A stretch of DNA of 39,074 nucleotides from Candidatus Omnitrophota bacterium. GTDB taxonomy: Bacteria > Omnitrophota > Gorgyraeia > Duberdicusellales > 4484-171. This document shows positions 2,381 through 31,493 of the stretch, in pieces. The notes below the pieces were generated by a model. It saw nothing but the letters and a program-made list of their open reading frames with translations. It made no database searches and was not told where the DNA came from. How positions within the stretch are numbered: position 1 is the stretch's first letter; each line of letters opens with the position of its first letter. The position numbers were made by a program, and so were the translations under genes. The stretch spans positions 1-39,074 of the forward strand of contig JAFGHG010000142.1 of assembly GCA_016939345.1 (NCBI GenBank), written 5' to 3'.

Positions 2381-4609
2381 ATGAAGCATCTTTCATCCTT
2401 TTTAAAGAGTGTTGTTTTTTTCCTTCTGTCTATCCTAATACTTTTAAGCCTTATCTCCTATAACCCCTCAGACATAAAATTTCTTAACTACCCTCCAAAA
2501 GGTTCGATATCTAATTTTGTAGGGATTGTCGGAGCCTACATTGCTTTTGCTCTTTTTTTTATCTTTGGATATGCCGCGTATTTTTTCCCTTTTTGTTTTG
2601 CCTGCCTTGGTTTAAACAAGCTGGAAATGATAAGGTTTTCCGGTCTTGGAAAAAGCCGCATCGTAAACGTCCTGGCCTTTACCTTCTTTATAGTTTTTCT
2701 TTCAGGGTTTATCGGGCTTTTTTTCTCAAGCGATACTGCAACCTTTAAATCTTCCGGGGTGATAGGATTTTTTCTAGGCGGATTTTTTAAGAAATATTTT
2801 GCTTTTAGTTCTTATATCATACTTTTTATACTTATGGCAGCATGCATGGTTGTATTCTTCGGCCTTTTCTTTATAGATTTTGTAAAGGCCTCGCGCAAAA
2901 TGTTCATAAGCATCTTTAACAGGATTAAGGAAAGAAGGCCTAAGGTCGAACCCAAACCAATAGTAAGAGAGCAGGTAAAAAAACGAGAAGGCGTAAAGGA
3001 AAAGATAAAAGAAGCTTTTTCGAAAAAGGAAAAAGTCAAGCCGGAGATAAAGATGTATGCTCCCAAAATAGAACCCCGGGAAAAGAAAGATGCCTTGTCC
3101 AGCGGCTTGGGTGTTGTTACTGCTTCGGCGACAGCTTCCAACAAAGAACAGATTCAGGATAAGATAAAGGATTTAGAAAACCAGCAGACCAAGACTTATG
3201 ATCCCAGAAATTATAAGTTGCCCCATGTATCATTATTAAAGGTGCCGCCCTTTCCTGATGCCCAGGAAACAAAAGAAGACATTGAGGCTAACATAAATAA
3301 CCTGGAAACCACTTTTTCTGATTTTGGAGTTGAGGCAAAAGTTGTAAGCGTACAAAAGGGCCCGGTTGTTACTATGTATGAGGTTTCTCCTCAATCTGGA
3401 ACAAAAATACAAAGGATATCTTCTTTAGCCGATGATATTGCTTTGGCCATGAAGTCGGCAAATGTAAGAATAGTCGCTCCTATACCAGGAAGAGGTACAA
3501 TAGGTGTGGAAATACCTAATTTAAAAAAACATCTTGTTTTTTTAAGAGAAGTCATTGAAGAAAAGATATTCAATCAGGCTTCTTCAAAGCTTACAATAGC
3601 GATAGGAAAGGATGTTTCAGGAAATCCTATCATAGCTAAATTGGATGATATGCCTCATCTTTTGATTGCCGGGGCAACCGGAGCCGGAAAAACAGTCTGC
3701 GTTAATTCTATAATATCTTCTATTCTTTTTAAGGCCAAGCCCGATGAGGTAAAATTCATCATGGTCGATCCTAAGATGGTCGAGCTGGCTTCATTTTCAG
3801 GCATACCCCATCTGATACATCCTATAATCTCTGAGGCAAAAAAAGCTTTTTTCGCTTTGAACTGGGCAGTTGAAGAGATGGAGAGAAGATACAGGATGCT
3901 AGCAGATTCTGGATCTCGCAATATAGATGTTTACAATAAGTCGAACCAAAAACTTCCTTACATTATAATAGTAGTTGATGAATTAGCAGACCTTATGATT
4001 GTAGCCAGGGAGAGTATAGAGACTGCCATACAAAGGCTGGCTCAGCTTTCCCGGGCAGTGGGAATACATCTGATTTTAGCTACTCAAAGGCCTTCTGTTG
4101 ATGTAATTACCGGGGTAATAAAAGCTAATTTTCCTGCCCGCATATCCTTTAAGGTTTCCTCAAAAGTTGATTCCCGTACAGTACTTGATATGATGGGGGC
4201 TGAGAAGCTTATCGGAAAAGGAGACCTTTTGTTTTTAAAGCCTGGAGCCATAAAGCTTATCCGGGCCCAAGGGTCATTCATAGACGACAGCGATATAGAA
4301 GTTTTGACTGATTTTATCCGAAAACAAGGCCGGCCGGTTTATGAAGAGGCTATTGTTGAAGGAGAAAAGAAACAAGCTTTAGACTTAGGAAGTGATGATT
4401 TATTTGAGGAAGCAGTAAAGATAGTTTTACGCACTAATCAGGCTTCGGCCTCTTTGTTGCAGCGCAGGCTAAGAGTTGGTTACACCAGGGCAGCCCGATT
4501 GCTTGATCTTATGGAGCAGGAAGGCATAGTAGGACCTTTTCGCGGAAGCAAAGCCCGCGAAATAATAGTAGATCCGGAAGTTTTTCTTGTTGAGAAAGGC
4601 TGGTCTTGA
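2381..4609 (+). CDS. ftsK: DNA translocase FtsK/SpoIIIE
   Basis: It has an N-terminal multi-TM region, a Lys/Glu/Pro-rich linker and a motor domain with Walker A (LLIAGATGAGKTV). The C-terminal gamma winged helix is present (LLQRRLRVGYTRAARLLDLMEQEGIV). Confidence 0.9.
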   Translation: MKHLSSFLKSVVFFLLSILILLSLISYNPSDIKFLNYPPKGSISNFVGIVGAYIAFALFFIFGYAAYFFPFCFACLGLNKLEMIRFSGLGKSRIVNVLAFTFFIVFLSGFIGLFFSSDTATFKSSGVIGFFLGGFFKKYFAFSSYIILFILMAACMVVFFGLFFIDFVKASRKMFISIFNRIKERRPKVEPKPIVREQVKKREGVKEKIKEAFSKKEKVKPEIKMYAPKIEPREKKDALSSGLGVVTASATASNKEQIQDKIKDLENQQTKTYDPRNYKLPHVSLLKVPPFPDAQETKEDIEANINNLETTFSDFGVEAKVVSVQKGPVVTMYEVSPQSGTKIQRISSLADDIALAMKSANVRIVAPIPGRGTIGVEIPNLKKHLVFLREVIEEKIFNQASSKLTIAIGKDVSGNPIIAKLDDMPHLLIAGATGAGKTVCVNSIISSILFKAKPDEVKFIMVDPKMVELASFSGIPHLIHPIISEAKKAFFALNWAVEEMERRYRMLADSGSRNIDVYNKSNQKLPYIIIVVDELADLMIVARESIETAIQRLAQLSRAVGIHLILATQRPSVDVITGVIKANFPARISFKVSSKVDSRTVLDMMGAEKLIGKGDLLFLKPGAIKLIRAQGSFIDDSDIEVLTDFIRKQGRPVYEEAIVEGEKKQALDLGSDDLFEEAVKIVLRTNQASASLLQRRLRVGYTRAARLLDLMEQEGIVGPFRGSKAREIIVDPEVFLVEKGWS

Positions 4610-5424
4610 TGCAGGAAATTTGCCGAAAGCTACGCCAGAAACGTAAAGAATTAGGTTACTCCATAGAACATGTGGTGGAAAAGACCAAACTGCACCCTTC
4701 AGTGATAAAGGACATTGAAGACTGTAACTTTGAAAATATAAGCAGTACATACTTAAAAGGGTTTATAAAGATTTATGCTTCATTTTTAGAGGTTGACACA
4801 AACCAGTCTGTAGAGGATCCGGAACTTGTTAAGCCGGATGTAAAAAAAATTTTTCAGCAGAAAACCTTACCGCAAAAGGAAAACATACAAAAAGATGTTC
4901 ATCAAAAAACATCTGCCCCCCAGAAAAGAAAGCCAAGGCCGGATTTAGCCAAGATAATCGTCGAAAGATTAAAGAAGATATCGCCAGAAGTTCGTAAAAA
5001 AATAGCTAAGGTTTTGATAGCCTTGCTGGTTGCCTGGTTGGTCTTTTCTTTAGGCAGGCTGGTTATTACAAAAGTCAAAAGTTTTTTTGCCAACAAGCCA
5101 AAAGCCGAGAAGACCAAAGAAACTGTTAATGATGAAAGGAGTATGGTTGATATCGAGCAGGGTCAGGAGATAACCGCATCTATTACAGCCAAAAAGAAAT
5201 GCTTTTTAAGGGTAACCGTAGACGGCAAGCTTTTATTTGAGGGGGTGCTTAATAACGGAGCCGTAGAAAGCTGGAAAGGCGTAAAAGAAATAGAATTTAA
5301 GATAAGCGACGGCTCTGCCGTTTATCTTGAAGTCAACGGAAAATCTATTCCTACCCTTTCTTCTATCCGAAAACCCATAAAGAGCCTTAAAATAACCCCA
5401 TCCGGAATATCCATCGATAAATAA
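4606..5424 (+). CDS. rodZ: RodZ-like cytoskeleton protein (XRE-type HTH, one TM, DUF4115-like C-terminus)
   Basis: Its start overlaps the ftsK stop (ATGA). It has an N-terminal HTH (LRQKRKELGYSIEHVVEKTKL), a TM segment (VLIALLVAWLVFSLG) and a C-terminal beta domain (FLRVTVDGKLLFEGVLNNG...YLEVNGKSI). Confidence 0.6.
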   Translation: MMQEICRKLRQKRKELGYSIEHVVEKTKLHPSVIKDIEDCNFENISSTYLKGFIKIYASFLEVDTNQSVEDPELVKPDVKKIFQQKTLPQKENIQKDVHQKTSAPQKRKPRPDLAKIIVERLKKISPEVRKKIAKVLIALLVAWLVFSLGRLVITKVKSFFANKPKAEKTKETVNDERSMVDIEQGQEITASITAKKKCFLRVTVDGKLLFEGVLNNGAVESWKGVKEIEFKISDGSAVYLEVNGKSIPTLSSIRKPIKSLKITPSGISIDK

Positions 5425-5438
5425 TATAATTAATAAGT

Positions 5439-5466
5439 CCGAAACCCGAATATCGAATTCCGAAGC
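5439..5466 (+). repeat. Four tandem heptamers, YCGAAnn (CCGAAAC CCGAATA TCGAATT CCGAAGC)
   Basis: CGAA occurs at 5440, 5447, 5454 and 5461, an exact 7-nt period. The repeat lies in the rodZ-rimO spacer and ends 9 nt before the rimO ATG. Confidence 0.75.
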
Positions 5467-5475
5467 AATTCTTAA

Positions 5476-6738
5476 ATGACCAAAATTCAAATGGCTAAGA
5501 AGACTTTCTCAATAATATCTCTGGGTTGTTTTAGAAACACCTATGATTCAGAGGTGATCATCAAGCGCTTTCAGAATAAAGGCTACAGGTATGTTTGCGA
5601 AGCTTCTCAAGCTCTGGATTTGATGATAATTAATACCTGTGGTTTTATTGAGGAGGCTAAGAAGGAGTCATTAACGCTTATTAGAGAGGCGTTATCTTTA
5701 AAGAGGAAGGGCAGGATAAAAAGAATTCTTGTTTCTGGATGTCTTTCCCAGCGTTACAGGAATGAGCTGAGAAAATCTTTGCCCCAGGTTGACGAGTTCA
5801 AAGGAGTAGAAGAATTTGAAATAGGATTTGAAAGCGGCTTGAAACTTACGACCAAAAACAGCGCTTTTGTAAAAATCTCTGAAGGTTGCATTAATTGCTG
5901 CAGTTTTTGCGCAATACCTTTGATAAAAGGAAGCCTAAAAAGCAGACCATCAAAGGATATTATCAGGGAGGTTAGATTTTTAAATGATAGGGGTGTTAAA
6001 GAGATAAATATAATCGGTCAGGATATTACCAGCTGGGGAAAAGACCTTGGTAAAAGCAGGGGGTTTAGCCGGCTTCTTGCCTCAATTGAGGAGGCCGCAG
6101 ATAAAGTTTCCTGGATAAGGCTTATTTATACTCATCCTAAGCATTTTAGCAGCGAGTTGATAGAAATGATAGGTAAAAGCGCTAAAATCTGCAATTATAT
6201 TGATTTGCCAATACAGCATATAAATGATAAAATTTTAAAGTCAATGAACCGCGGGATTTCCAGCGATAAGCTTATATCTTTGATAAAAAAAATAAGAAAG
6301 ACCATTCCCAAAGTCGCACTAAGGTCCTCGATAATCGTTGGTTTTCCCGGAGAAAACAATAAAGACTTTCAAGAATTAAAAGATTTTCTTAAATTTATCA
6401 AATTCGAGCGTCTCGGAGTATTTGTCTATTCCCGGGAAGAAGGCACCAGGGCTTATGATTTTGTTCCTCAGGTACACCCGGCAACAAAGAAAAAACGCCA
6501 ACGTTTATTAATGGAACAGCAAAAAGATATAGTTGCAGAGTTTAATAAAGGATTGCTTGATAAAAAAATATCCGTTTTGATTGAAGAAAGGCAAAACAGC
6601 ACTTTTATCGGCCGCAGCGAATATGATGCTCCGGAGGTAGATGGGCAGGTCTTTGTTAAGAGAAAAGGATTAAAAATCGGCCATATTTACCAGCTGAAAA
6701 TCACTGATTATTTTGGTTATGACCTTATAGCCGAATAA
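5476..6738 (+). CDS. rimO: Radical-SAM methylthiotransferase, RimO-like (ribosomal protein S12 methylthiotransferase)
   Basis: It has an N-terminal MTTase domain (SLGCFRNTYDSE), a radical-SAM cluster motif (CINCCSFC) and a C-terminal TRAM-like segment. Separating RimO from MiaB by eye is not certain. Confidence 0.7.
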   Translation: MTKIQMAKKTFSIISLGCFRNTYDSEVIIKRFQNKGYRYVCEASQALDLMIINTCGFIEEAKKESLTLIREALSLKRKGRIKRILVSGCLSQRYRNELRKSLPQVDEFKGVEEFEIGFESGLKLTTKNSAFVKISEGCINCCSFCAIPLIKGSLKSRPSKDIIREVRFLNDRGVKEINIIGQDITSWGKDLGKSRGFSRLLASIEEAADKVSWIRLIYTHPKHFSSELIEMIGKSAKICNYIDLPIQHINDKILKSMNRGISSDKLISLIKKIRKTIPKVALRSSIIVGFPGENNKDFQELKDFLKFIKFERLGVFVYSREEGTRAYDFVPQVHPATKKKRQRLLMEQQKDIVAEFNKGLLDKKISVLIEERQNSTFIGRSEYDAPEVDGQVFVKRKGLKIGHIYQLKITDYFGYDLIAE

Positions 6739-25683: not shown

Positions 25684-25745
25684 GCCGGCGATCCCCCCCT
25701 AACTCGTCCAAATAGTATAAAAATAACCTTATATTTATATTTTAT

Positions 25746-25773
25746 TTGTCTTTTTAGGGGGCAGTGATATAAT
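25746..25773 (+). promoter_or_regulatory. Candidate promoter for the ilv operon (TTGTCT-16 nt-TATAAT)
   Basis: The -35 is at 25746-25751 and the -10 at 25768-25773. It would give a leader of about 195 nt before ilvB. Confidence 0.4.
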
Positions 25774-25880
25774 TAGAAACGATTATTTTAGGCCTATGAC
25801 CTCTTAAATATTTAAAGCGAATGAGCTTTTTTAGCATAATTCTATCCAATTTAGGCAGTTTTAAGGCAGGCTTATTTGTG

Positions 25881-25899
25881 GTCCGCTCCCTGAGCGGAT
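25881..25899 (+). promoter_or_regulatory. Short GC-rich hairpin in the ilvB leader (TCCGCTC-cct-GAGCGGA)
   Basis: It is a 7-bp stem (25882-25888 with 25892-25898) followed by TTTACT. It could be an attenuator or terminator element, but the U-tract is weak. Confidence 0.3.
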
Positions 25900-25973
25900 T
25901 TACTATGCCAACTCTATTTTTAACTTTTTTGCAAAAAAATAAAACAAATTCAAGATAAAAAAAGGATAATGCA

Positions 25974-27656
25974 ATGAAGATGAAAGGCGCGAAAATATTG
26001 ATTGAAAGTTTATTAAAGGAGAAGGTTGAAGTTATCTTCGGCTACCCCGGAGGTTCGGTCATACCTTTTTTTGATTATCTTTATGATGCCCCGATAAAAT
26101 TTTATTTACCCAGGCATGAACAGGCTGCTGCTCACGCCGCAGACGGTTATGCCCGCTCTACCGGCAAAGTAGGAGTTTGTGTTGCTACTTCCGGTCCGGG
26201 CGCAACAAACCTGACTACAGGCTTGGCTACAGCTTATATGGATTCAATACCTATAATTGCTATTACCGGTCAGGTAAAGACTACTTTGATTGGAAATGAC
26301 GCTTTTCAGGAAGCAGATGTTACTGGAATAACCCGTTCTATCACCAAGTATAACTACTTGGTAAAGGATGTTAAAGATCTGGCTTATACTGTAAAGGAGG
26401 CTTTTCATATAGCTGCCTCGGGAAGGCCTGGCCCGGTTGTCATTGATTTGCCGGTTGATGTTCAACTGCAGGAAGCTGAGTTCAGCTATCCTGAGAGGAT
26501 TGAGGTCAGGACATACTCCCCGACTCTTTTCGGCCACCCCGGACAGATAAAAAAAGCCTGCAGGCTTATTTATAAAGCCAAGCGGCCGGTTATACTTTCT
26601 GGAGGAGGTATAATTTCTTCCGGAGCCCATGGGGAGATACTGCGTTTTGCCGAGAAAATAAATTCACCTGTAAGCATGACGCTTTTAGGCATGGGAGGGT
26701 TTCCTTCTACACACGATCTTTCTTTAGGGATGCCGGGCATGCACGGCACTGTTTATGCTAACATGGCGATTACTGAGTCAGATCTGATTATATCAGCTGG
26801 CTGTCGTTTCGACGACAGGATTACCGGAAAAATCGAGGCCTTTGCTCCAGAAGCAAAAATAATCCATATAGATATAGACCCCACATCGATCAGTAAAAAC
26901 ATCAAGGTCGATGTTCCTATTGTCGGAGATGCTAAAAATATCATTGGTCAGCTTATTGAGGAACTGCAAGAAGATAAGCTTAGCGATACCAGCAGCTGGC
27001 ACAAGAAGATAAAAGAGTGGAAAAAGAAGCATCCTCTGACTTATAAAAAAGACGAAACAGGAAAGATAAAGCCCCAGCATGTAATAGAGGAGCTTTACCG
27101 TCAGACTAAGGGAAAGGCGATCGTCAGCACAGAAGTAGGTCAAAACCAGATGTGGGCAGCCCAGTTTTATAAGTATAATTACCCGCGCCAATTTTTATCC
27201 AGCGGCGGCCTGGGGACTATGGGCTATGGTTTTCCCGCGGCAATAGGAGCTAAAGTGGCTAATCCCAAAAAAGAGGTCATAGTTATAGCCGGTGATGGTT
27301 CGTTTCAGATGAACATCCAGGAGCTGGCAACCCTGAGCACTTACAATATTGGCGTTAAGGTTATAATCCTTAACAATAATTATTTAGGCATGGTAAGGCA
27401 GTGGCAGGAGTTATTTTATCAACGCCGTTATTCAGGCACTCCGCTTAAGAATCCTGATTTTGTAAAAGTAGCATCAGGTTACGGCATCAAGGGTCTTAGA
27501 GTAAAAAACCCTGCTGATGTCAGAAAATCAGTTAAGGACATACTTTCTTACAAAGGGGCTGTAGTTGCTGAATTTACTATTGAACCTGAGGAGAATGTAT
27601 TTCCTATGGTTCCGGCAGGAGAAGCCATTAACAGGATGATCGGCGGAATGGCTTGA
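25974..27656 (+). CDS. ilvB: Acetolactate synthase (AHAS) large catalytic subunit
   Basis: It is a ThDP enzyme: [22 protein letters not shown] and the ThDP-binding motif [15 protein letters not shown]...GDGSFQMN. Confidence 0.92.
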
Positions 27657-27663
27657 TTTTGCT

Positions 27664-27885
27664 ATGGTCAACAAAAGAAAGCGAATACAGGATAGGCGCC
27701 AGAGAGTCAAAGACCGCCGGCAAAGGATGTATGATAGAAGACGGGAATCTGAATTCCGCCAATATGAAAAAGATGAAAGAAGAAGAAGAGAAGACAGAAG
27801 GCAGGGTAAAAGAGACAGGCGTTTCAATGTAGTTGACAGGCGTCAGATTGACAATGAGCTTTACGAAGAACATAGACAGGAGTAG
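27664..27885 (+). CDS. Hypothetical 73-aa arginine-rich protein with DRR(Q) heptad repeats
   Basis: The ORF fills the ilvB-ilvN gap exactly. It starts 7 nt after the ilvB stop and its stop lies 3 nt before the ilvN ATG. It has 24 Arg in 73 aa and six DRR units encoded with differing codons. It has no clear SD of its own. Confidence 0.55.
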   Translation: MVNKRKRIQDRRQRVKDRRQRMYDRRRESEFRQYEKDERRRREDRRQGKRDRRFNVVDRRQIDNELYEEHRQE

Positions 27886-27888
27886 ATA

Positions 27889-28362
27889 ATGAAACATACG
27901 ATCCAGGCTTTAGTTGAGAACAGGTTCGGTGTTCTAGCCAGGGTTTCCTCTTTATTCAGTGCCAGAGGCTATAACATCGATTCTTTAGCAGTTGGAGAGA
28001 CCCAGGATCCCCAGGTATCTTGCATGACCATTGTTGTTAATGCCGAAGATGAAAGGATACTGGAACAAATAAAAAAGCAGCTTCATAAACTGATCGATGT
28101 AATCACAGTAGTTGATTTTACCAGAAGAGAATACATCGACAGAGATCTTATTTTGGCTAAGGTCCAGAAGAAAAAAGGTAAAGAGGGTTTGGTCGAAAAA
28201 TTAATAAAAAAATATCCAATCAAGCTGGTAGAACAAAAAAAGGATTTTTATATTTTGGAAATCTGCTCTGACCGGCATCAGGAAGAGGAGATTCTTAAGG
28301 AGCTGAATTCCATAGGCATCAAGGAGCTTGTAAGAACTGGCAGAATCGCAATCGGGAAATAA
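27889..28362 (+). CDS. ilvN: Acetolactate synthase small regulatory subunit (ACT domain)
   Basis: It begins HTIQALVENRFGVLARVSSLFSARGYNIDSLAVGET. The SD AGGAG lies 6 nt upstream of the ATG. Confidence 0.9.
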   Translation: MKHTIQALVENRFGVLARVSSLFSARGYNIDSLAVGETQDPQVSCMTIVVNAEDERILEQIKKQLHKLIDVITVVDFTRREYIDRDLILAKVQKKKGKEGLVEKLIKKYPIKLVEQKKDFYILEICSDRHQEEEILKELNSIGIKELVRTGRIAIGK

Positions 28363-28386
28363 ACGAACATCAATAATATTGAATGG

Positions 28387-28472
28387 GCCCCGTAAAAAGC
28401 TAGCATGTAGCTCGCTTAACGGGGCTCAATTCGAATAATCCCTTGACATTGAGTTAATTCAAATGTCAGGGG
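28387..28472 (+). promoter_or_regulatory. Two stem-loops in the ilvN-ilvC spacer
   Basis: In hairpin 1, GCCCCGT (28387-28393) pairs with ACGGGGC (28419-28425), with an apical AGCTA/TAGCT stem (28398-28412). Hairpin 2 (28440-28472) has CCCTTGACATT paired with AATGTCAGGGG, about 11 bp including one G-U. Neither is followed by a U-tract. Confidence 0.5.
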
Positions 28473-28496
28473 AAAGTCTCATTGAGGAGGTAGAAG

Positions 28497-29486
28497 ATGG
28501 CAAAGGTTTATTATGATAAAGATATAAGCATGGATGTTTTAAAGAAAAAGACAGTTGCTATTATAGGTTACGGCGCCCAGGGAAGGGCGCAGGCGCTTAA
28601 CCTTAAAGATTCTAAGGTCAAAGTTCTTATATCTGAGCTGCCCGGCACAAATAATTATAAACAGGCCATAAAAGACGGCTTCCAGCCTTTGACAGCTGCC
28701 GAGGCATCAAAAAAGGCTGATATTATCCATATTCTCACTCCGGATACCATACAGGCACAGGTATATAAAAAGGATATTGCCCCTTTTTTAAAGAAGGGTA
28801 AAGCCCTTGGATTCTCTCACGGATTCAATATCCATTTTCATCAGATACTGCCGCCGCCTGACGTTGATGTTTATATGGTCGCTCCTAAAGGGCCGGGATC
28901 ACTGGTAAGAGATATGTATGAGCAGAAGAAGGGAGTGCCCTGCCTTTTTGCTGTTTATCAAAACCCTTCAAAGAACGCTAGAAAAATCGCCCTTGCTTAT
29001 GCCAGGGCGCTTGGCGGTTCCCGTGCAGGAGTTATTGAAACTACATTTTCTGAAGAGACTGAAACAGACCTTTTCGGAGAGCAGGTTGTTCTTTGCGGAG
29101 GCCTTACCAAGCTTATTCAGAAAGGTTTTGAGACCCTTGTTGAAGCAGGTTATCAGCCGGAAGTAGCTTATTTTGAATGCCTGCACGAGGTAAAACTTAT
29201 AACTGACCTTATTTATTCAAAGGGTATAGGCGGTATGCGTTATGTTGTATCTGATACAGCAGAATACGGAGATCTTACCCGCGGCCCGAGGATAGTCACC
29301 GGGGAGACCAAAAAGGAGATGAAAAAAATTCTTTCTGAAATCCAGTCGGGAGAATTTGCCCGGGAATGGATACTAGAGACCCAGGCTGGAGCTCCGGTTT
29401 TTAAGGCTAAACGGAAGATAGAAGAAGATCATATAATAGAAAAAGTAGGCGCGTCTTTACGCAAGATGATGTCTTGGATCAAATGA
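28497..29486 (+). CDS. ilvC: Ketol-acid reductoisomerase (class I)
   Basis: It has MAKVYYDKD...[20 protein letters not shown] and [10 protein letters not shown]. The SD is strong (GAGGAGG). Confidence 0.95.
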
Positions 29487-29621: not shown

Positions 29622-31493
29622 ATGAAGAGACCTGTAATCATTGTTTTGATTGGTATTGTGGTGGCAGCCGGAATATTTTTTGCTGTGCAGACCTTTATCA
29701 AGCCGGGCAAGATCGGCGATATCGAATCTTTAGTGCCTTCCGAAGCAATTTATTACATTTATTCTTATCAGCTTGGCCAAAAAATAGAGGATTTTTGTAA
29801 CTCCGATTTTTTCTTAAAGATTAGCAACCTTTCTTTTTACCAGGAGTATTTACAGCCTTCCATTGACAAGAAAGAAAAGCTTTATAAAAATCTTTCTCAA
29901 GTTTACAACAGCGATTCAGCTCTGGCAGTATTTTCTCCGGGAATTGTCGCGCCTTCAGGCGGAATAGAGCCTATGATCGAGCCTGGAAAATTTATGTTAT
30001 TAGTGCGTATGGATACAAAGAAAAATATAAAAAAGACAATCGGAGATCTTTATCTTTTACTAAATGAGAAGGAAGATGTCTCTTATTCTACTTATAAAGG
30101 CATAAAGATAACCCATTATCAAATTCCTTTAGACAAAAGCAAGTTTCCCTTTCCTGATCTAAAAATAAGCTATGCTGTTTTAGGAGATATTTTAGTCAGC
30201 TCTAATACTGATGAGCTGTTAAAGCAATCAATAGACCTGTTTAATAAAAGCAGTACTGATTCTTTGCTCAATGATGAGGTATATAAAAAAATATCAGGCA
30301 AATATGCCGACAAAAAGAAAGATTCGTTTTTCTGGACTTTTATCAATTATAAGCGCTATACTGAAAAATTTCTCGCCCAGGTAGATGATATGTTTATTGA
30401 TCAGGCTCAGAATGAAAAGATGAGGGATTTTATTGAGAGTTTCATAGATGTTTCTGCCGGCATTATTTCCTATCTCGGATATGATAGCAGCAAATCTGGT
30501 TTTGTAGGCGAAAGCTATCAGCTTTATGATAAAAGTAAAGACGATCATGGCCTTTTAGAGATATCTTCTTCCAAAGGAAGCAAGAATGACCTGACCGCAG
30601 TGATTCCTCCTCAGTTTTTTGTTTATTTTGGCTGTTCGGGCAATATCTCCGGCTACTGGAACTATTTCAGCAAATTGATGATGTCTTCAGAGGAAATTAA
30701 ACAAAGCGCTATGGGAGATAGCATGTATGCAGCAGATAAACAGCCGTCTTTTTCTAAAACCATAAAAAGTTTGGAAACCTATTTAGGTTTAAGCATTGAG
30801 AAGGATGTTATGCCTTTGCTTGGTAATGATTTCAGCTTTGTAATCTCCGATTTAGAAGAAGTTTCTCTTGCTCCTAAAAGCGGGCAGATAAATCCCATGC
30901 AGCTTTTTCCCACGCCCATGCCTACGCTTAGCCTTTTGTTCGAAACAAAAGACCAGTCTTCGGCCGAGAAACTCAAGAGTTTGATAATTGAAAAGGTTAC
31001 CCAATTAAGTCCATCTCAGCCGGAGTCAGAACCATTTTTAAGCATAGCTGAAGATAGTTATGCTGGAGTTAATTTAAGTGTTATTTCGATAAAAGAGTTG
31101 CCGTTTCATCCGGTCTGTTTTGTTCTTAATGATAAGTGTATAATCTCTTCTACCACGGACCATGCTAAAAAAATAATCGATACTTCAAAACAAAGCTCTA
31201 ACAGCCTGGAAAACAACCTTGATTTTTCTTTTGATCCAAATAAGATTTTAAAAGGAAGTGCTGCCACTTTGATAGTTAAGTTTGCTGATTTAATAGATGC
31301 TATTGCTCAGACAAAAATCGTAAATTTTGCCAAGCCGAGCGTTGCTTTATTTAGCCAGGGTAAAGTTACTACCAATGATATCGATGACATAATCGATATT
31401 CTGGATGATATAAGTATTATTGCCCAGGCCAATGACATTACAGCAGATGGCACAGGCAGCGGGCTGTTTTATATTGGTATAGAGGGCTTATAG
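29622..31493 (+). CDS. Membrane-anchored hypothetical protein (DUF3352-like, tentative)
   Basis: It has an N-terminal TM (VIIVLIGIVVAAGIFFAV) and a large soluble domain. The SD AAAGGAGG is present. The family call comes from general architecture only. Confidence 0.55.
   Translation: MKRPVIIVLIGIVVAAGIFFAVQTFIKPGKIGDIESLVPSEAIYYIYSYQLGQKIEDFCNSDFFLKISNLSFYQEYLQPSIDKKEKLYKNLSQVYNSDSALAVFSPGIVAPSGGIEPMIEPGKFMLLVRMDTKKNIKKTIGDLYLLLNEKEDVSYSTYKGIKITHYQIPLDKSKFPFPDLKISYAVLGDILVSSNTDELLKQSIDLFNKSSTDSLLNDEVYKKISGKYADKKKDSFFWTFINYKRYTEKFLAQVDDMFIDQAQNEKMRDFIESFIDVSAGIISYLGYDSSKSGFVGESYQLYDKSKDDHGLLEISSSKGSKNDLTAVIPPQFFVYFGCSGNISGYWNYFSKLMMSSEEIKQSAMGDSMYAADKQPSFSKTIKSLETYLGLSIEKDVMPLLGNDFSFVISDLEEVSLAPKSGQINPMQLFPTPMPTLSLLFETKDQSSAEKLKSLIIEKVTQLSPSQPESEPFLSIAEDSYAGVNLSVISIKELPFHPVCFVLNDKCIISSTTDHAKKIIDTSKQSSNSLENNLDFSFDPNKILKGSAATLIVKFADLIDAIAQTKIVNFAKPSVALFSQGKVTTNDIDDIIDILDDISIIAQANDITADGTGSGLFYIGIEGL

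Follow-up and report, generated by a model that had tools for sequence, protein, structure and literature searches.

A Candidatus Omnitrophota bacterium (assembly GCA_016939345.1, contig JAFGHG010000142.1) carries a 73-codon open reading frame (ORF) between ilvB and ilvN, the genes for the catalytic and regulatory subunits of acetohydroxyacid synthase (AHAS). Here, the window means the whole 39,074-nt stretch of DNA that was analysed, and the window ORF or window copy is the frame at 27664-27885. Large- and small-subunit genes of AHAS are normally adjacent or overlapping (ilvBN, ilvIH, ilvGM). An earlier note, made from the letters alone, had described an arginine-rich extra cistron at this junction. 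On re-reading the sequence we found its coordinates for ilvB, the ORF, ilvN and the AGGAG motif correct to the base, and its translation, counts of charged residues and positions of the DRR and ERR units were exact.

The window ORF begins with an ATG 7 nt downstream of the ilvB stop (TGA, 27654-27656) and ends with a TAG (27883-27885) 3 nt before the ilvN ATG (27889) (Table 1). It is read in the same frame as ilvN and is shifted by +1 relative to ilvB. The ORF lacks a Shine-Dalgarno (SD) sequence of its own, which is unremarkable because only 17 of the 32 window genes have one. A start at the internal ATG 27727 (M22, 'MYDRR...'), which would mimic the N-terminus 'MKDRR' of the family described below, is conceivable but less likely than one at 27664, because the 21 codons upstream hold two more in-phase DRR heptads. 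The sequence was recovered in an independent assembly, a Logan contig from SRR13394437 (L001), with 100% identity to the window over 27600-29085. According to Pfam, the gene upstream of ilvB is citramalate/isopropylmalate-synthase-like and the gene downstream of ilvN is ilvC.

Table 1. Features at the ilvB-ilvN junction of the window
Feature	Coordinates	Strand	Basis
ilvB, AHAS catalytic subunit, 560 aa	25974..27656	+	TPP_enzyme_N/M/C Pfam domains, E 1e-40 to 1e-58
Putative overlapping alternative-frame ORF, 59 aa, TTG start, judged spurious	27653..27832	+	Logan contig gene call
Probable DRR microprotein gene, 73 aa, net charge +12, TAG stop included	27664..27885	+	ORF reading and family evidence
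Array of seven [D/E]RR triads in heptad register, residues 10-60	27691..27843	+	shuffle tests; no DNA tandem repeat
Family C-terminal motif DRR-FNVVD, residues 51-58 (= DRRKFNIL(D/E) of short members)	27814..27837	+	motif scan
ilvN SD AGGAG, within the last ORF codons, 6 nt before the ilvN ATG	27878..27882	+	
ilvN, AHAS regulatory subunit, 157 aa	27889..28362	+	ACT_AHAS_ss and ALS_ss_C

A family of DRR peptides in the ilvB-ilvN slot

The window peptide contains 24 Arg, 5 Lys, 8 Asp and 9 Glu residues (33% Arg; net charge +12), and its [DE]RR triads start at residues 10, 17, 24, 38, 44, 51 and 58 (modulo 7: 3, 3, 3, 3, 2, 2, 2). At least seven such triads were obtained in a fraction of 5e-5 of 100,000 composition-preserving peptide shuffles, and at least four adjacent spacings of exactly 7 in none of 100,000 (p<1e-5 for heptad periodicity). 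The six DRR triads are encoded by differing codon combinations, and Tandem Repeats Finder reported a weak AAG/10-nt run at 27764-27800 but no 21-nt repeat. The open frame by itself is only modestly unusual (a stop-free frame crosses the 232-nt spacer in 1.9% of base-composition shuffles), because the tract is 69% purine (69-71%) and T-poor. In such a T-poor tract further frames are expected by-products, and two antisense ORFs of 89-99 aa also overlap the spacer, as does the 59-aa TTG-start frame. The gene call on the Logan contig (L001 54-233) corresponds to this last frame and not to the DRR frame. We judge it to be a small Arg-rich gene called in the wrong frame within a purine-rich tract, because stops interrupt the 59-aa frame in all relatives with a DRR ORF and because it has no family match.

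An IlvN-based scan of species-representative genomes provided 80 related loci, nearly all from Candidatus Omnitrophota metagenome-assembled genomes (MAGs), some of them labelled Planctomycetia. Besides the window copy, Omnitrophota MAGs and metagenomes contain six distinct DRR ORFs of 39-56 aa and one decayed copy (Table 2), all on the ilvB strand between ilvB and ilvN; the extra cistron proposed in the earlier note thus looks real. The [D/E]RR triads typically form pairs with a 7-residue spacing (3/10 and 23/30 in forms of 39-41 aa), every RR follows an invariant acidic residue, the C-terminal motif is DRR(K)FN(I/V)(L/V)(D/E), and the net charge is +9 to +14 in every member, whatever its length. 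In a six-frame scan of ~650 kb of related loci, low-GC Omnitrophota ORFs with at least three DRR units occurred only in the ilvB-ilvN slot. A pattern scan of JGI metagenomes added two further slot copies and one unrelated high-GC histidine kinase. One member (P0001) is annotated as a gene by both NCBI and JGI, and its exact sequence is present on four contigs (shown for three JGI samples).

Table 2. DRR peptides in the ilvB-ilvN slot of relatives
Locus	Peptide
L014 / L083	MKDRRKNPEDRRKKSQKRPTTKERRLAKHDRRKFNILEV
L021 / L084	MKDRRKNPEDRRTKKEKRPKENERRSPKKDRRKFDILKV
L031 (=P0001, also L086-L088)	MKDRRVNSQGDRRKVLKKAKKTGQDRRKNKKDRRKWNVLDLDN
L033	one substitution relative to L031
L034	TTG start, KDRREKTDDRRQKEADRRKKRKRVKKSDNKRKGLENRRERNADRRRRNILDPDSW
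L082 (=P0002)	MKDRREGLKDRRQKKGKLPESREKRIAKKDRRKFNILDVDN
L009	divergent copy, in-frame TGA

The decayed copy (L009, ~3815-3995) has its in-frame TGA after 10 codons, with no downstream start codon and no FN motif, and is probably a decaying gene or an assembly error. The high-GC histidine kinase (L085, 3001-3078) begins MKDRRHGLKDRRQ directly before the HisKA helix; signalling proteins of unrelated bacteria, too, carry paired DRR units as N-terminal tags.

Two tests connect the window copy to the short members. Among 1.3 million six-frame residues, the motif [DE]RR.?[FW][ND][IV][LV] was matched ten times, nine of them in slot ORFs, DRRFNVVD of the window included. In ungapped alignments, the window peptide matches the short members best at offsets 8, 15 and 22, which is the heptad register, with 11-14 identities over 32 positions (p about 1e-4 by composition-preserving shuffles). 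At offset 22, M22-Y-D-R-R is superimposed on the family's M-K-D-R-R and the 27-residue distance to the C-terminal DRR-FN is kept. The window copy looks like the family core (residues 22-58) with a two-heptad N-terminal extension and an acidic C-terminal tail. By these two tests it appears to belong to the family beyond shared composition, and it is very probably the longest member of an undescribed family of basic microproteins (39-73 aa), so far restricted to Omnitrophota and to the ilvB-ilvN slot.

The earlier note knew of no characterised family with this architecture, and searches of Pfam, NCBIfam, PHROGs, PDB, Rfam, representative proteins (phmmer) and protein clusters returned only two unnamed members. 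These are proteins of 41-43 aa, recovered by a profile of the relatives' ORFs in a search of 5.8 billion clusters. The window peptide itself had no match in a word-indexed search of the same clusters or in an exhaustive phmmer search of 1.84 billion representatives. No relative of the DRR peptides was found in Pfam, NCBIfam, PHROGs or PDB (Pfam: none at E<=1 for the window ORF and none at E<=0.1 for P0001 and P0002, with PF06568 (DUF1127) unmatched), and a scan of viral contigs revealed no family member.

AlphaFold modelled the window peptide as one helix (residues 4-72, pLDDT 84), whereas the model of P0002 is of low confidence and half disordered (pLDDT 64, helix only at 22-39). The short members have Pro or Gly between the N-terminal triads, and inspection of the family peptides by eye shows no hydrophobic core, signal peptide or transmembrane segment. 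The models suggest that the common denominator of the members is a disordered or partly helical polycation and not a fold, a pattern that would be typical of peptides that order on binding.

Across the 82 loci surveyed, the contents of the slot vary strikingly. The two subunit genes overlap or lie at most 10 nt apart at 27 loci and are separated by 11-60 nt at 21; another 15 have a spacer of 61-260 nt without a DRR ORF. A DRR-type ORF occupies the slot at eight loci, a ~480-aa gene at seven and other genes at two, and at the remaining two no ilvB was seen upstream of ilvN. The idea that the ORF would persist between ilvB and ilvN in related genomes therefore held only in part: most relatives lack it, with the genes abutting or overlapping in 27/82 and a spacer of 11-60 nt in 21/82, and the carriers preserve the DRR spacing. 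Its absence from most related genomes makes the DRR ORF an accessory gene, dispensable for AHAS and not a core part of the enzyme.

The ~480-aa gene encodes a protein with a transmembrane (TM) segment and GAF and HD-GYP domains (Pfam HD_5, GAF_2), a predicted phosphodiesterase of the guanine-nucleotide second messenger cyclic di-GMP (c-di-GMP), and recurs, translationally coupled, in the ilvBN cluster of 12 Omnitrophota loci. It lies within the slot, with start/stop overlaps to ilvB and ilvN, at seven of them (L008 1484-2929, L020, L028, L032, L036, L043 and L055) and right after ilvN at five (L056 ~543-1982, L060, L063, L066 and L072 ~4470-5900). This recurrence suggests a link of c-di-GMP signalling, or of GAF-sensed metabolites, to branched-chain amino-acid synthesis. 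The two other slot genes are a 272-aa fusion of a nucleotidyltransferase (Polbeta) and a HepT-like RNase, toxin-antitoxin-like (L041 3184-4001), and a 142-aa secreted protein with a signal peptide and no Pfam family (L035 3483-4001). With such unrelated cargo in the slot, position is weak evidence of an AHAS function.

Selection on the DRR ORFs and signals for their translation

Between L031 and L033, the DRR ORFs differ by 12 synonymous and 2 non-synonymous changes (proportion of synonymous differences, pS, 0.49; ratio of non-synonymous to synonymous divergence, dN/dS, 0.024), and the ilvN genes have a dN/dS of 0.061 and a pS of 0.51. For L014 and L021, dN/dS is 0.115 in the DRR ORF and 0.097 in ilvN. 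Overall, the short DRR ORFs have dN/dS values of 0.02-0.15 with synonymous sites near saturation, and purifying selection on them is as strong as on ilvN. Conservation of the purine tract at the nucleotide level only, which the earlier note had named as an outcome that would undo its claim, is excluded because the peptide is constrained while synonymous sites are near saturation; the tract also has no excess RNA structure (z = 0.00). As far as sequence comparison goes, the amino-acid sequence, and not an RNA or a DNA repeat, is shown to be the target of selection, in line with what the mixed DRR codons and the lack of a 21-nt repeat had indicated for the window copy. The further suggestion of an Arg-codon-dense cis element that couples ilvN translation to tRNA-Arg supply did not stand up, since the Arg codons of the window ORF (AGA 11, AGG 5, CGN 8) mirror the general usage of the window (AGA 30%, AGG 32%).

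Signals for translation were found in several relatives. The DRR ORFs have SD sequences of their own in L021 and L082 (AAGGTG) and in L034 (AAGGAGG); in these three loci 27-32 nt separate the ORF stop from ilvN, and ilvN is preceded by an SD of its own in L021 and L082. In L031 and L033, ilvN lacks an SD and starts 8 nt after the stop of the DRR ORF, which argues for termination-reinitiation and hence for translation of the small ORF; ilvN translation in these two loci probably depends on it. Fusion to IlvB or IlvN by read-through or frameshifting was rejected, as the frame relations vary among members and no mechanism is conserved.

In two groups of loci (L021 3790-3845, L084 and L082 1055-1113; L031 and L033), the untranslated leader immediately preceding the DRR ORF is conserved much more strongly than synonymous sites are. 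L021 and L082 differ at 3 of 58 nt in the leader, against a pS of 0.59-0.79, and L031 (367-454) and L033 (3773-3860) at 2 of 88 nt, against a pS of about 0.5. The leader of L021, L084 and L082 contains a highly conserved 8-bp hairpin directly upstream of the ORF (AUCCCGAU-AGUA-AUCGGGAU, z = -1.9), whereas that of L031 and L033 has no significant fold and no Rfam match. The conserved leader may serve as a binding site for a protein, as a promoter or as a site of processing.

Candidate roles of the DRR peptide

Taken together, the window ORF is very probably a real protein-coding gene. We favour, with moderate confidence, the joint reading that it is a genuine, translationally coupled gene of the DRR family whose product binds a polyanion, most likely RNA. 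The ORF would form one link of a ribosome relay from ilvB through the ORF to ilvN, in which re-initiation after the ilvB stop would start the ORF 7 nt further on without an SD of its own, and ribosomes would terminate on the ORF over the ilvN SD, 3 nt short of the ilvN AUG. The product would be an accessory, largely disordered or helical polycation that folds upon its polyanionic ligand. This ligand would most likely be RNA (mRNA or the ribosome), bound in the manner of arginine-rich motif (ARM) peptides, and the D/E beside each RR may confer a preference for guanine. Polyanion binding with RNA as the default ligand is our best guess by analogy; an obligatory role in AHAS is unlikely.

ARM peptides such as lambda/P22 N and HIV Rev/Tat act by binding RNA. 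They are very short and highly basic, contain RR/ERR clusters and are helical or disordered until bound, and by their composition and AlphaFold models the DRR peptides likewise appear as short Arg-rich segments, helical or disordered. ARMs, however, are segments of 15-25 residues within larger regulators and have a known cognate hairpin, whereas the DRR microprotein is a periodic array over the whole protein. Among the DRR ORFs, those of L021, L084 and L082 alone have a conserved hairpin ahead of them. DUF1127 and similar proteins (for example YjiS; PMC11707872, PMC12501420) are also Arg-rich bacterial microproteins of <60 aa implicated in RNA or protein binding; DUF1127 is not known to have DRR periodicity, these proteins belong to different phyla and genomic contexts, and the window ORF does not match PF06568.

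Several results weigh against our reading. With a HMMER profile of the short members, the window ORF scored 4.4 bits with a bias of 36.6, that is, the composition correction removes the score; this link was replaced by the motif and register tests, both of which control for composition. The closest available relatives of the window are ~73% identical in ilvB DNA, no carrier of the 73-aa form is closer than that, and the dN/dS values are those of short members only. The nearest relatives by IlvB/IlvN lack a DRR ORF, and bootstraps of 19-49% in neighbour-joining (NJ) trees are too low to decide between one and several origins of the three carrier lineages. The in-frame TGA of L009 shows that a DRR gene can decay, and fold and inverted-repeat scans revealed no cognate RNA hairpin in the window.

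Instead of RNA, the peptide might bind the AHAS holoenzyme as an accessory subunit or assembly factor and tune assembly, activity or valine feedback. The ORF lies exactly between the two subunit genes and is tightly coupled to each, DRR ORFs were found nowhere but in the slot, and they are constrained as strongly as ilvN; operon order often mirrors the order of complex assembly. The AHAS small subunits IlvN, IlvH and IlvM are likewise encoded straight after the catalytic subunit and translationally coupled to it, but the DRR ORF has neither an ACT domain nor any similarity to them, and a bona fide IlvN follows it. We nevertheless consider this role unlikely: the spacer of <=60 nt at 48 of the 82 loci leaves no room for the ORF, so that AHAS works without it, and the slot is shared with the unrelated TM-GAF-HD-GYP protein, nucleotidyltransferase-HepT fusion and secreted protein. 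IlvB and IlvN of carriers are net basic themselves and not more acidic than those of non-carriers, and with charges of +10 and +4 those of the window are poor partners for a +12 peptide.

A quite unlikely alternative is that the free peptide has no function and the ORF serves as a translational relay or regulatory upstream ORF (uORF), carrying ribosomes across the spacer and setting the IlvN:IlvB ratio; the polybasic nascent chain or the terminal Ile/Leu/Val codons would tune transit over the ilvN start. The ORF fits the spacer exactly, with its stop on the ilvN SD/AUG, the arrangement in L031 and L033 fits such a relay, and the few hydrophobic residues, mostly Ile/Leu/Val, cluster C-terminally just before ilvN. 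Control by a uORF is known from ilvBNC of Corynebacterium (PMC10272879). A pure relay, however, has no need of a conserved amino-acid sequence or of an invariant acidic residue before RR, and there is no run of regulatory codons, no alternative hairpin or terminator, and the Arg codons are the common ones of the genome. The distance between the ORF stop and ilvN in L021, L082 and L034, together with the ilvN SD of the first two, also speaks against it. As in the ilv leaders and uORFs (E. coli ivbL/ilvL; Corynebacterium ilvBNC, PMC10272879), a small ORF in an ilv transcript is placed where its translation could affect a downstream cistron, but the leaders precede the first structural gene, have many Val/Leu/Ile codons and act through alternative hairpins, whereas the window ORF is internal, Arg-rich and without structure. 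A leader-peptide attenuator was rejected on the same features: the position between ilvB and ilvN, 24 Arg codons, Ile/Leu/Val scattered without a run, and no hairpins.

The DRR units also recall the arginine-rich region of CleD, and the peptide might act as a c-di-GMP sponge or effector that uses DRR and RxxD contacts and replaces or complements the HD-GYP phosphodiesterase. The minimal CleD peptide DRRRFNSADYKGPRRRKAD binds a c-di-GMP dimer via DRR-x11-[R/K]RxxD, and in CSP, the peptide that sequesters c-di-GMP, a tyrosine and a glycine of the second repeat are critical, Y163A and G165A losing 25-40-fold (PMC7382256). Both CleD and the DRR peptides have short Arg-rich sequences that are unstructured alone (the latter by their models, like apo-CSP), DRR is essential for ligand contact in CleD, and DRR(R/K)FN is common to both, the family's DRR(K/R)FN matching the first six residues of the CleD peptide. 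RxxD occurs five times in the window copy and the relaxed pattern DRR-x(9-13)-[RK]Rxx[DE] three times, and the TM-GAF-HD-GYP genes in the slot (seven relatives) or after ilvN (five) point to a c-di-GMP link to the operon in the phylum. Yet this role is very unlikely. Cle regions, which extend CheY-like receivers of Alphaproteobacteria at the C-terminus, have tandem [Y/F]xGP[D/E][R/K]R as their defining motif (PMC5677366), and a regular-expression search gave 0 matches to it in all seven family peptides. DRR microproteins stand alone (39-73 aa) with 3-7 DRR triads in heptad register, and have neither the GP and aromatic positions nor the x11 spacing to [R/K]RxxD. The strict DRR-x11-[RK]RxxD is absent from all members, and the relaxed form is found once in L021 and in none of L014, L031, L033, L034 and L082. 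The short members contain just one aromatic residue and, for the most part, no RxxD, and such motif matches are cheap in Arg-rich sequences. There is no c-di-GMP gene in the 39-kb window, and the anticorrelation of DRR ORFs with HD-GYP genes (0/7 vs 12/63) is not significant. A PilZ-type receptor was also considered and rejected: [DN]xSxxG is absent from every member, RRxxxR is confined to the window copy and arises there by composition, and Pfam gave no PilZ match.

That the window ORF is a non-functional leftover, either a chance frame in a purine-rich spacer or the stub of a lost insert such as the HD-GYP gene, is highly improbable. The slot is a hot spot of insertion and deletion, T-poor sequence opens several frames, L009 is a decaying copy, and in the NJ tree the window clusters with L008, an HD-GYP carrier; the bootstrap of this grouping is just 19%. 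The juxtamembrane segment (R/H)KF(N/T)(I/V)(L/F)F of the HD-GYP proteins resembles the family C-terminal RKFNIL, so that '(R)KF(N/T)I' is common to the N-terminus of the one and the C-terminus of the other. Descent of the DRR ORF from the 5' end of an HD-GYP gene was rejected (hhalign probability of 0.4% against the HD-GYP N-terminus; no blastn similarity between the window spacer and the L008 insert), which makes the shared (R)KF(N/T)I(L/F) a suggestive, unexplained resemblance. Against a leftover of either kind are the heptad periodicity with its mixed codons, the family motif and the register shared with the short members, and a start and stop that fit both neighbours exactly. A reading as a cis-acting RNA element, whether riboswitch, attenuator or protein-binding purine tract, with an incidental ORF is largely refuted, for although the tract is purine-rich and has SD-like AGGAG/AGGA motifs, its fold is no better than that of shuffles, it has no Rfam 15 match at gathering thresholds (only lncRNA noise at E about 0.8-0.9), 27657-27888 contains no inverted repeat or terminator-like site, and it is the protein that relatives conserve while synonymous sites are saturated.

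Provided that the gene call is right, the DRR peptides would be a strongly constrained new microprotein family from an uncultivated phylum, missed or misframed by standard pipelines. The AHAS subunit junction, usually treated as invariant, would be a place where regulators have inserted repeatedly in Omnitrophota (the DRR peptide, the GAF-HD-GYP protein and the toxin-antitoxin-like fusion). The peptide is compact and synthesisable, with RNA, c-di-GMP and AHAS as candidate ligands. Should a ligand be found, the outcome would be either a repeat of a new kind that binds RNA or nucleotides or, for a bacterial AHAS operon, a first additional component; should the peptide act only as a relay, it would be a clean natural relay ORF with a sequence that is nevertheless conserved. 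If c-di-GMP or a relative of it were the ligand, the peptides would be stand-alone sensors or sponges composed of repeated DRR contact units; together with the GAF-HD-GYP gene in the slot of sister lineages, they would point to a coupling, not known before, of c-di-GMP signalling to branched-chain amino-acid synthesis in Omnitrophota, and they would be nature's equivalent of the c-di-GMP-sequestering peptides made by engineering.

Other features of the junction and the ilv-leu cluster

Traces of rearrangement were detected at the junction in three carriers of DRR sequences (L014 ~3770-3871, L083 ~2900-3000 and L009 ~3700-3820), in which a tandem duplication of the terminal ~40 nt of ilvB precedes the DRR ORF. 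The duplication is in frame in L014 and L083, giving a 23-aa C-terminal extension of IlvB, and the second copy is out of frame in L009. It is a scar of rearrangement at the junction.

Spacers without an ORF (L070 1089-1171, L060 3827-3930, L073 3820-3937, L032 2062-2318 and L064 3882-3963) contain short repeats, first direct and then inverted, that form long imperfect hairpins. The units are CACGAAT/ATTCGTG in L060 and L070, AGCTCATG in L073 and ACAAATTACAA in L032, and CACGAAT also occurs twice in the DRR leader of L031 and L033. These repeats may be elements like repetitive extragenic palindromes (REP) or operator arrays.

Upstream of ilvB, the window has a 290-nt untranslated gap (25684-25973) without an Rfam match. 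It contains a strong promoter-like site (TTGTCT-16-TATAAT with TG, 25746-25773) and a hairpin (GTCCGCTC...GAGCGGAT) near 25880-25900, and could be an ilv leader or attenuator. Between ilvC and leuA the window encodes a 623-aa ORF (29622-31493, + strand) with an N-terminal hydrophobic segment and no Pfam match. In L086 and L087, ilvC is followed directly by leuA, and the 623-aa ORF thus appears to be another lineage-specific insertion in the ilv-leu cluster.

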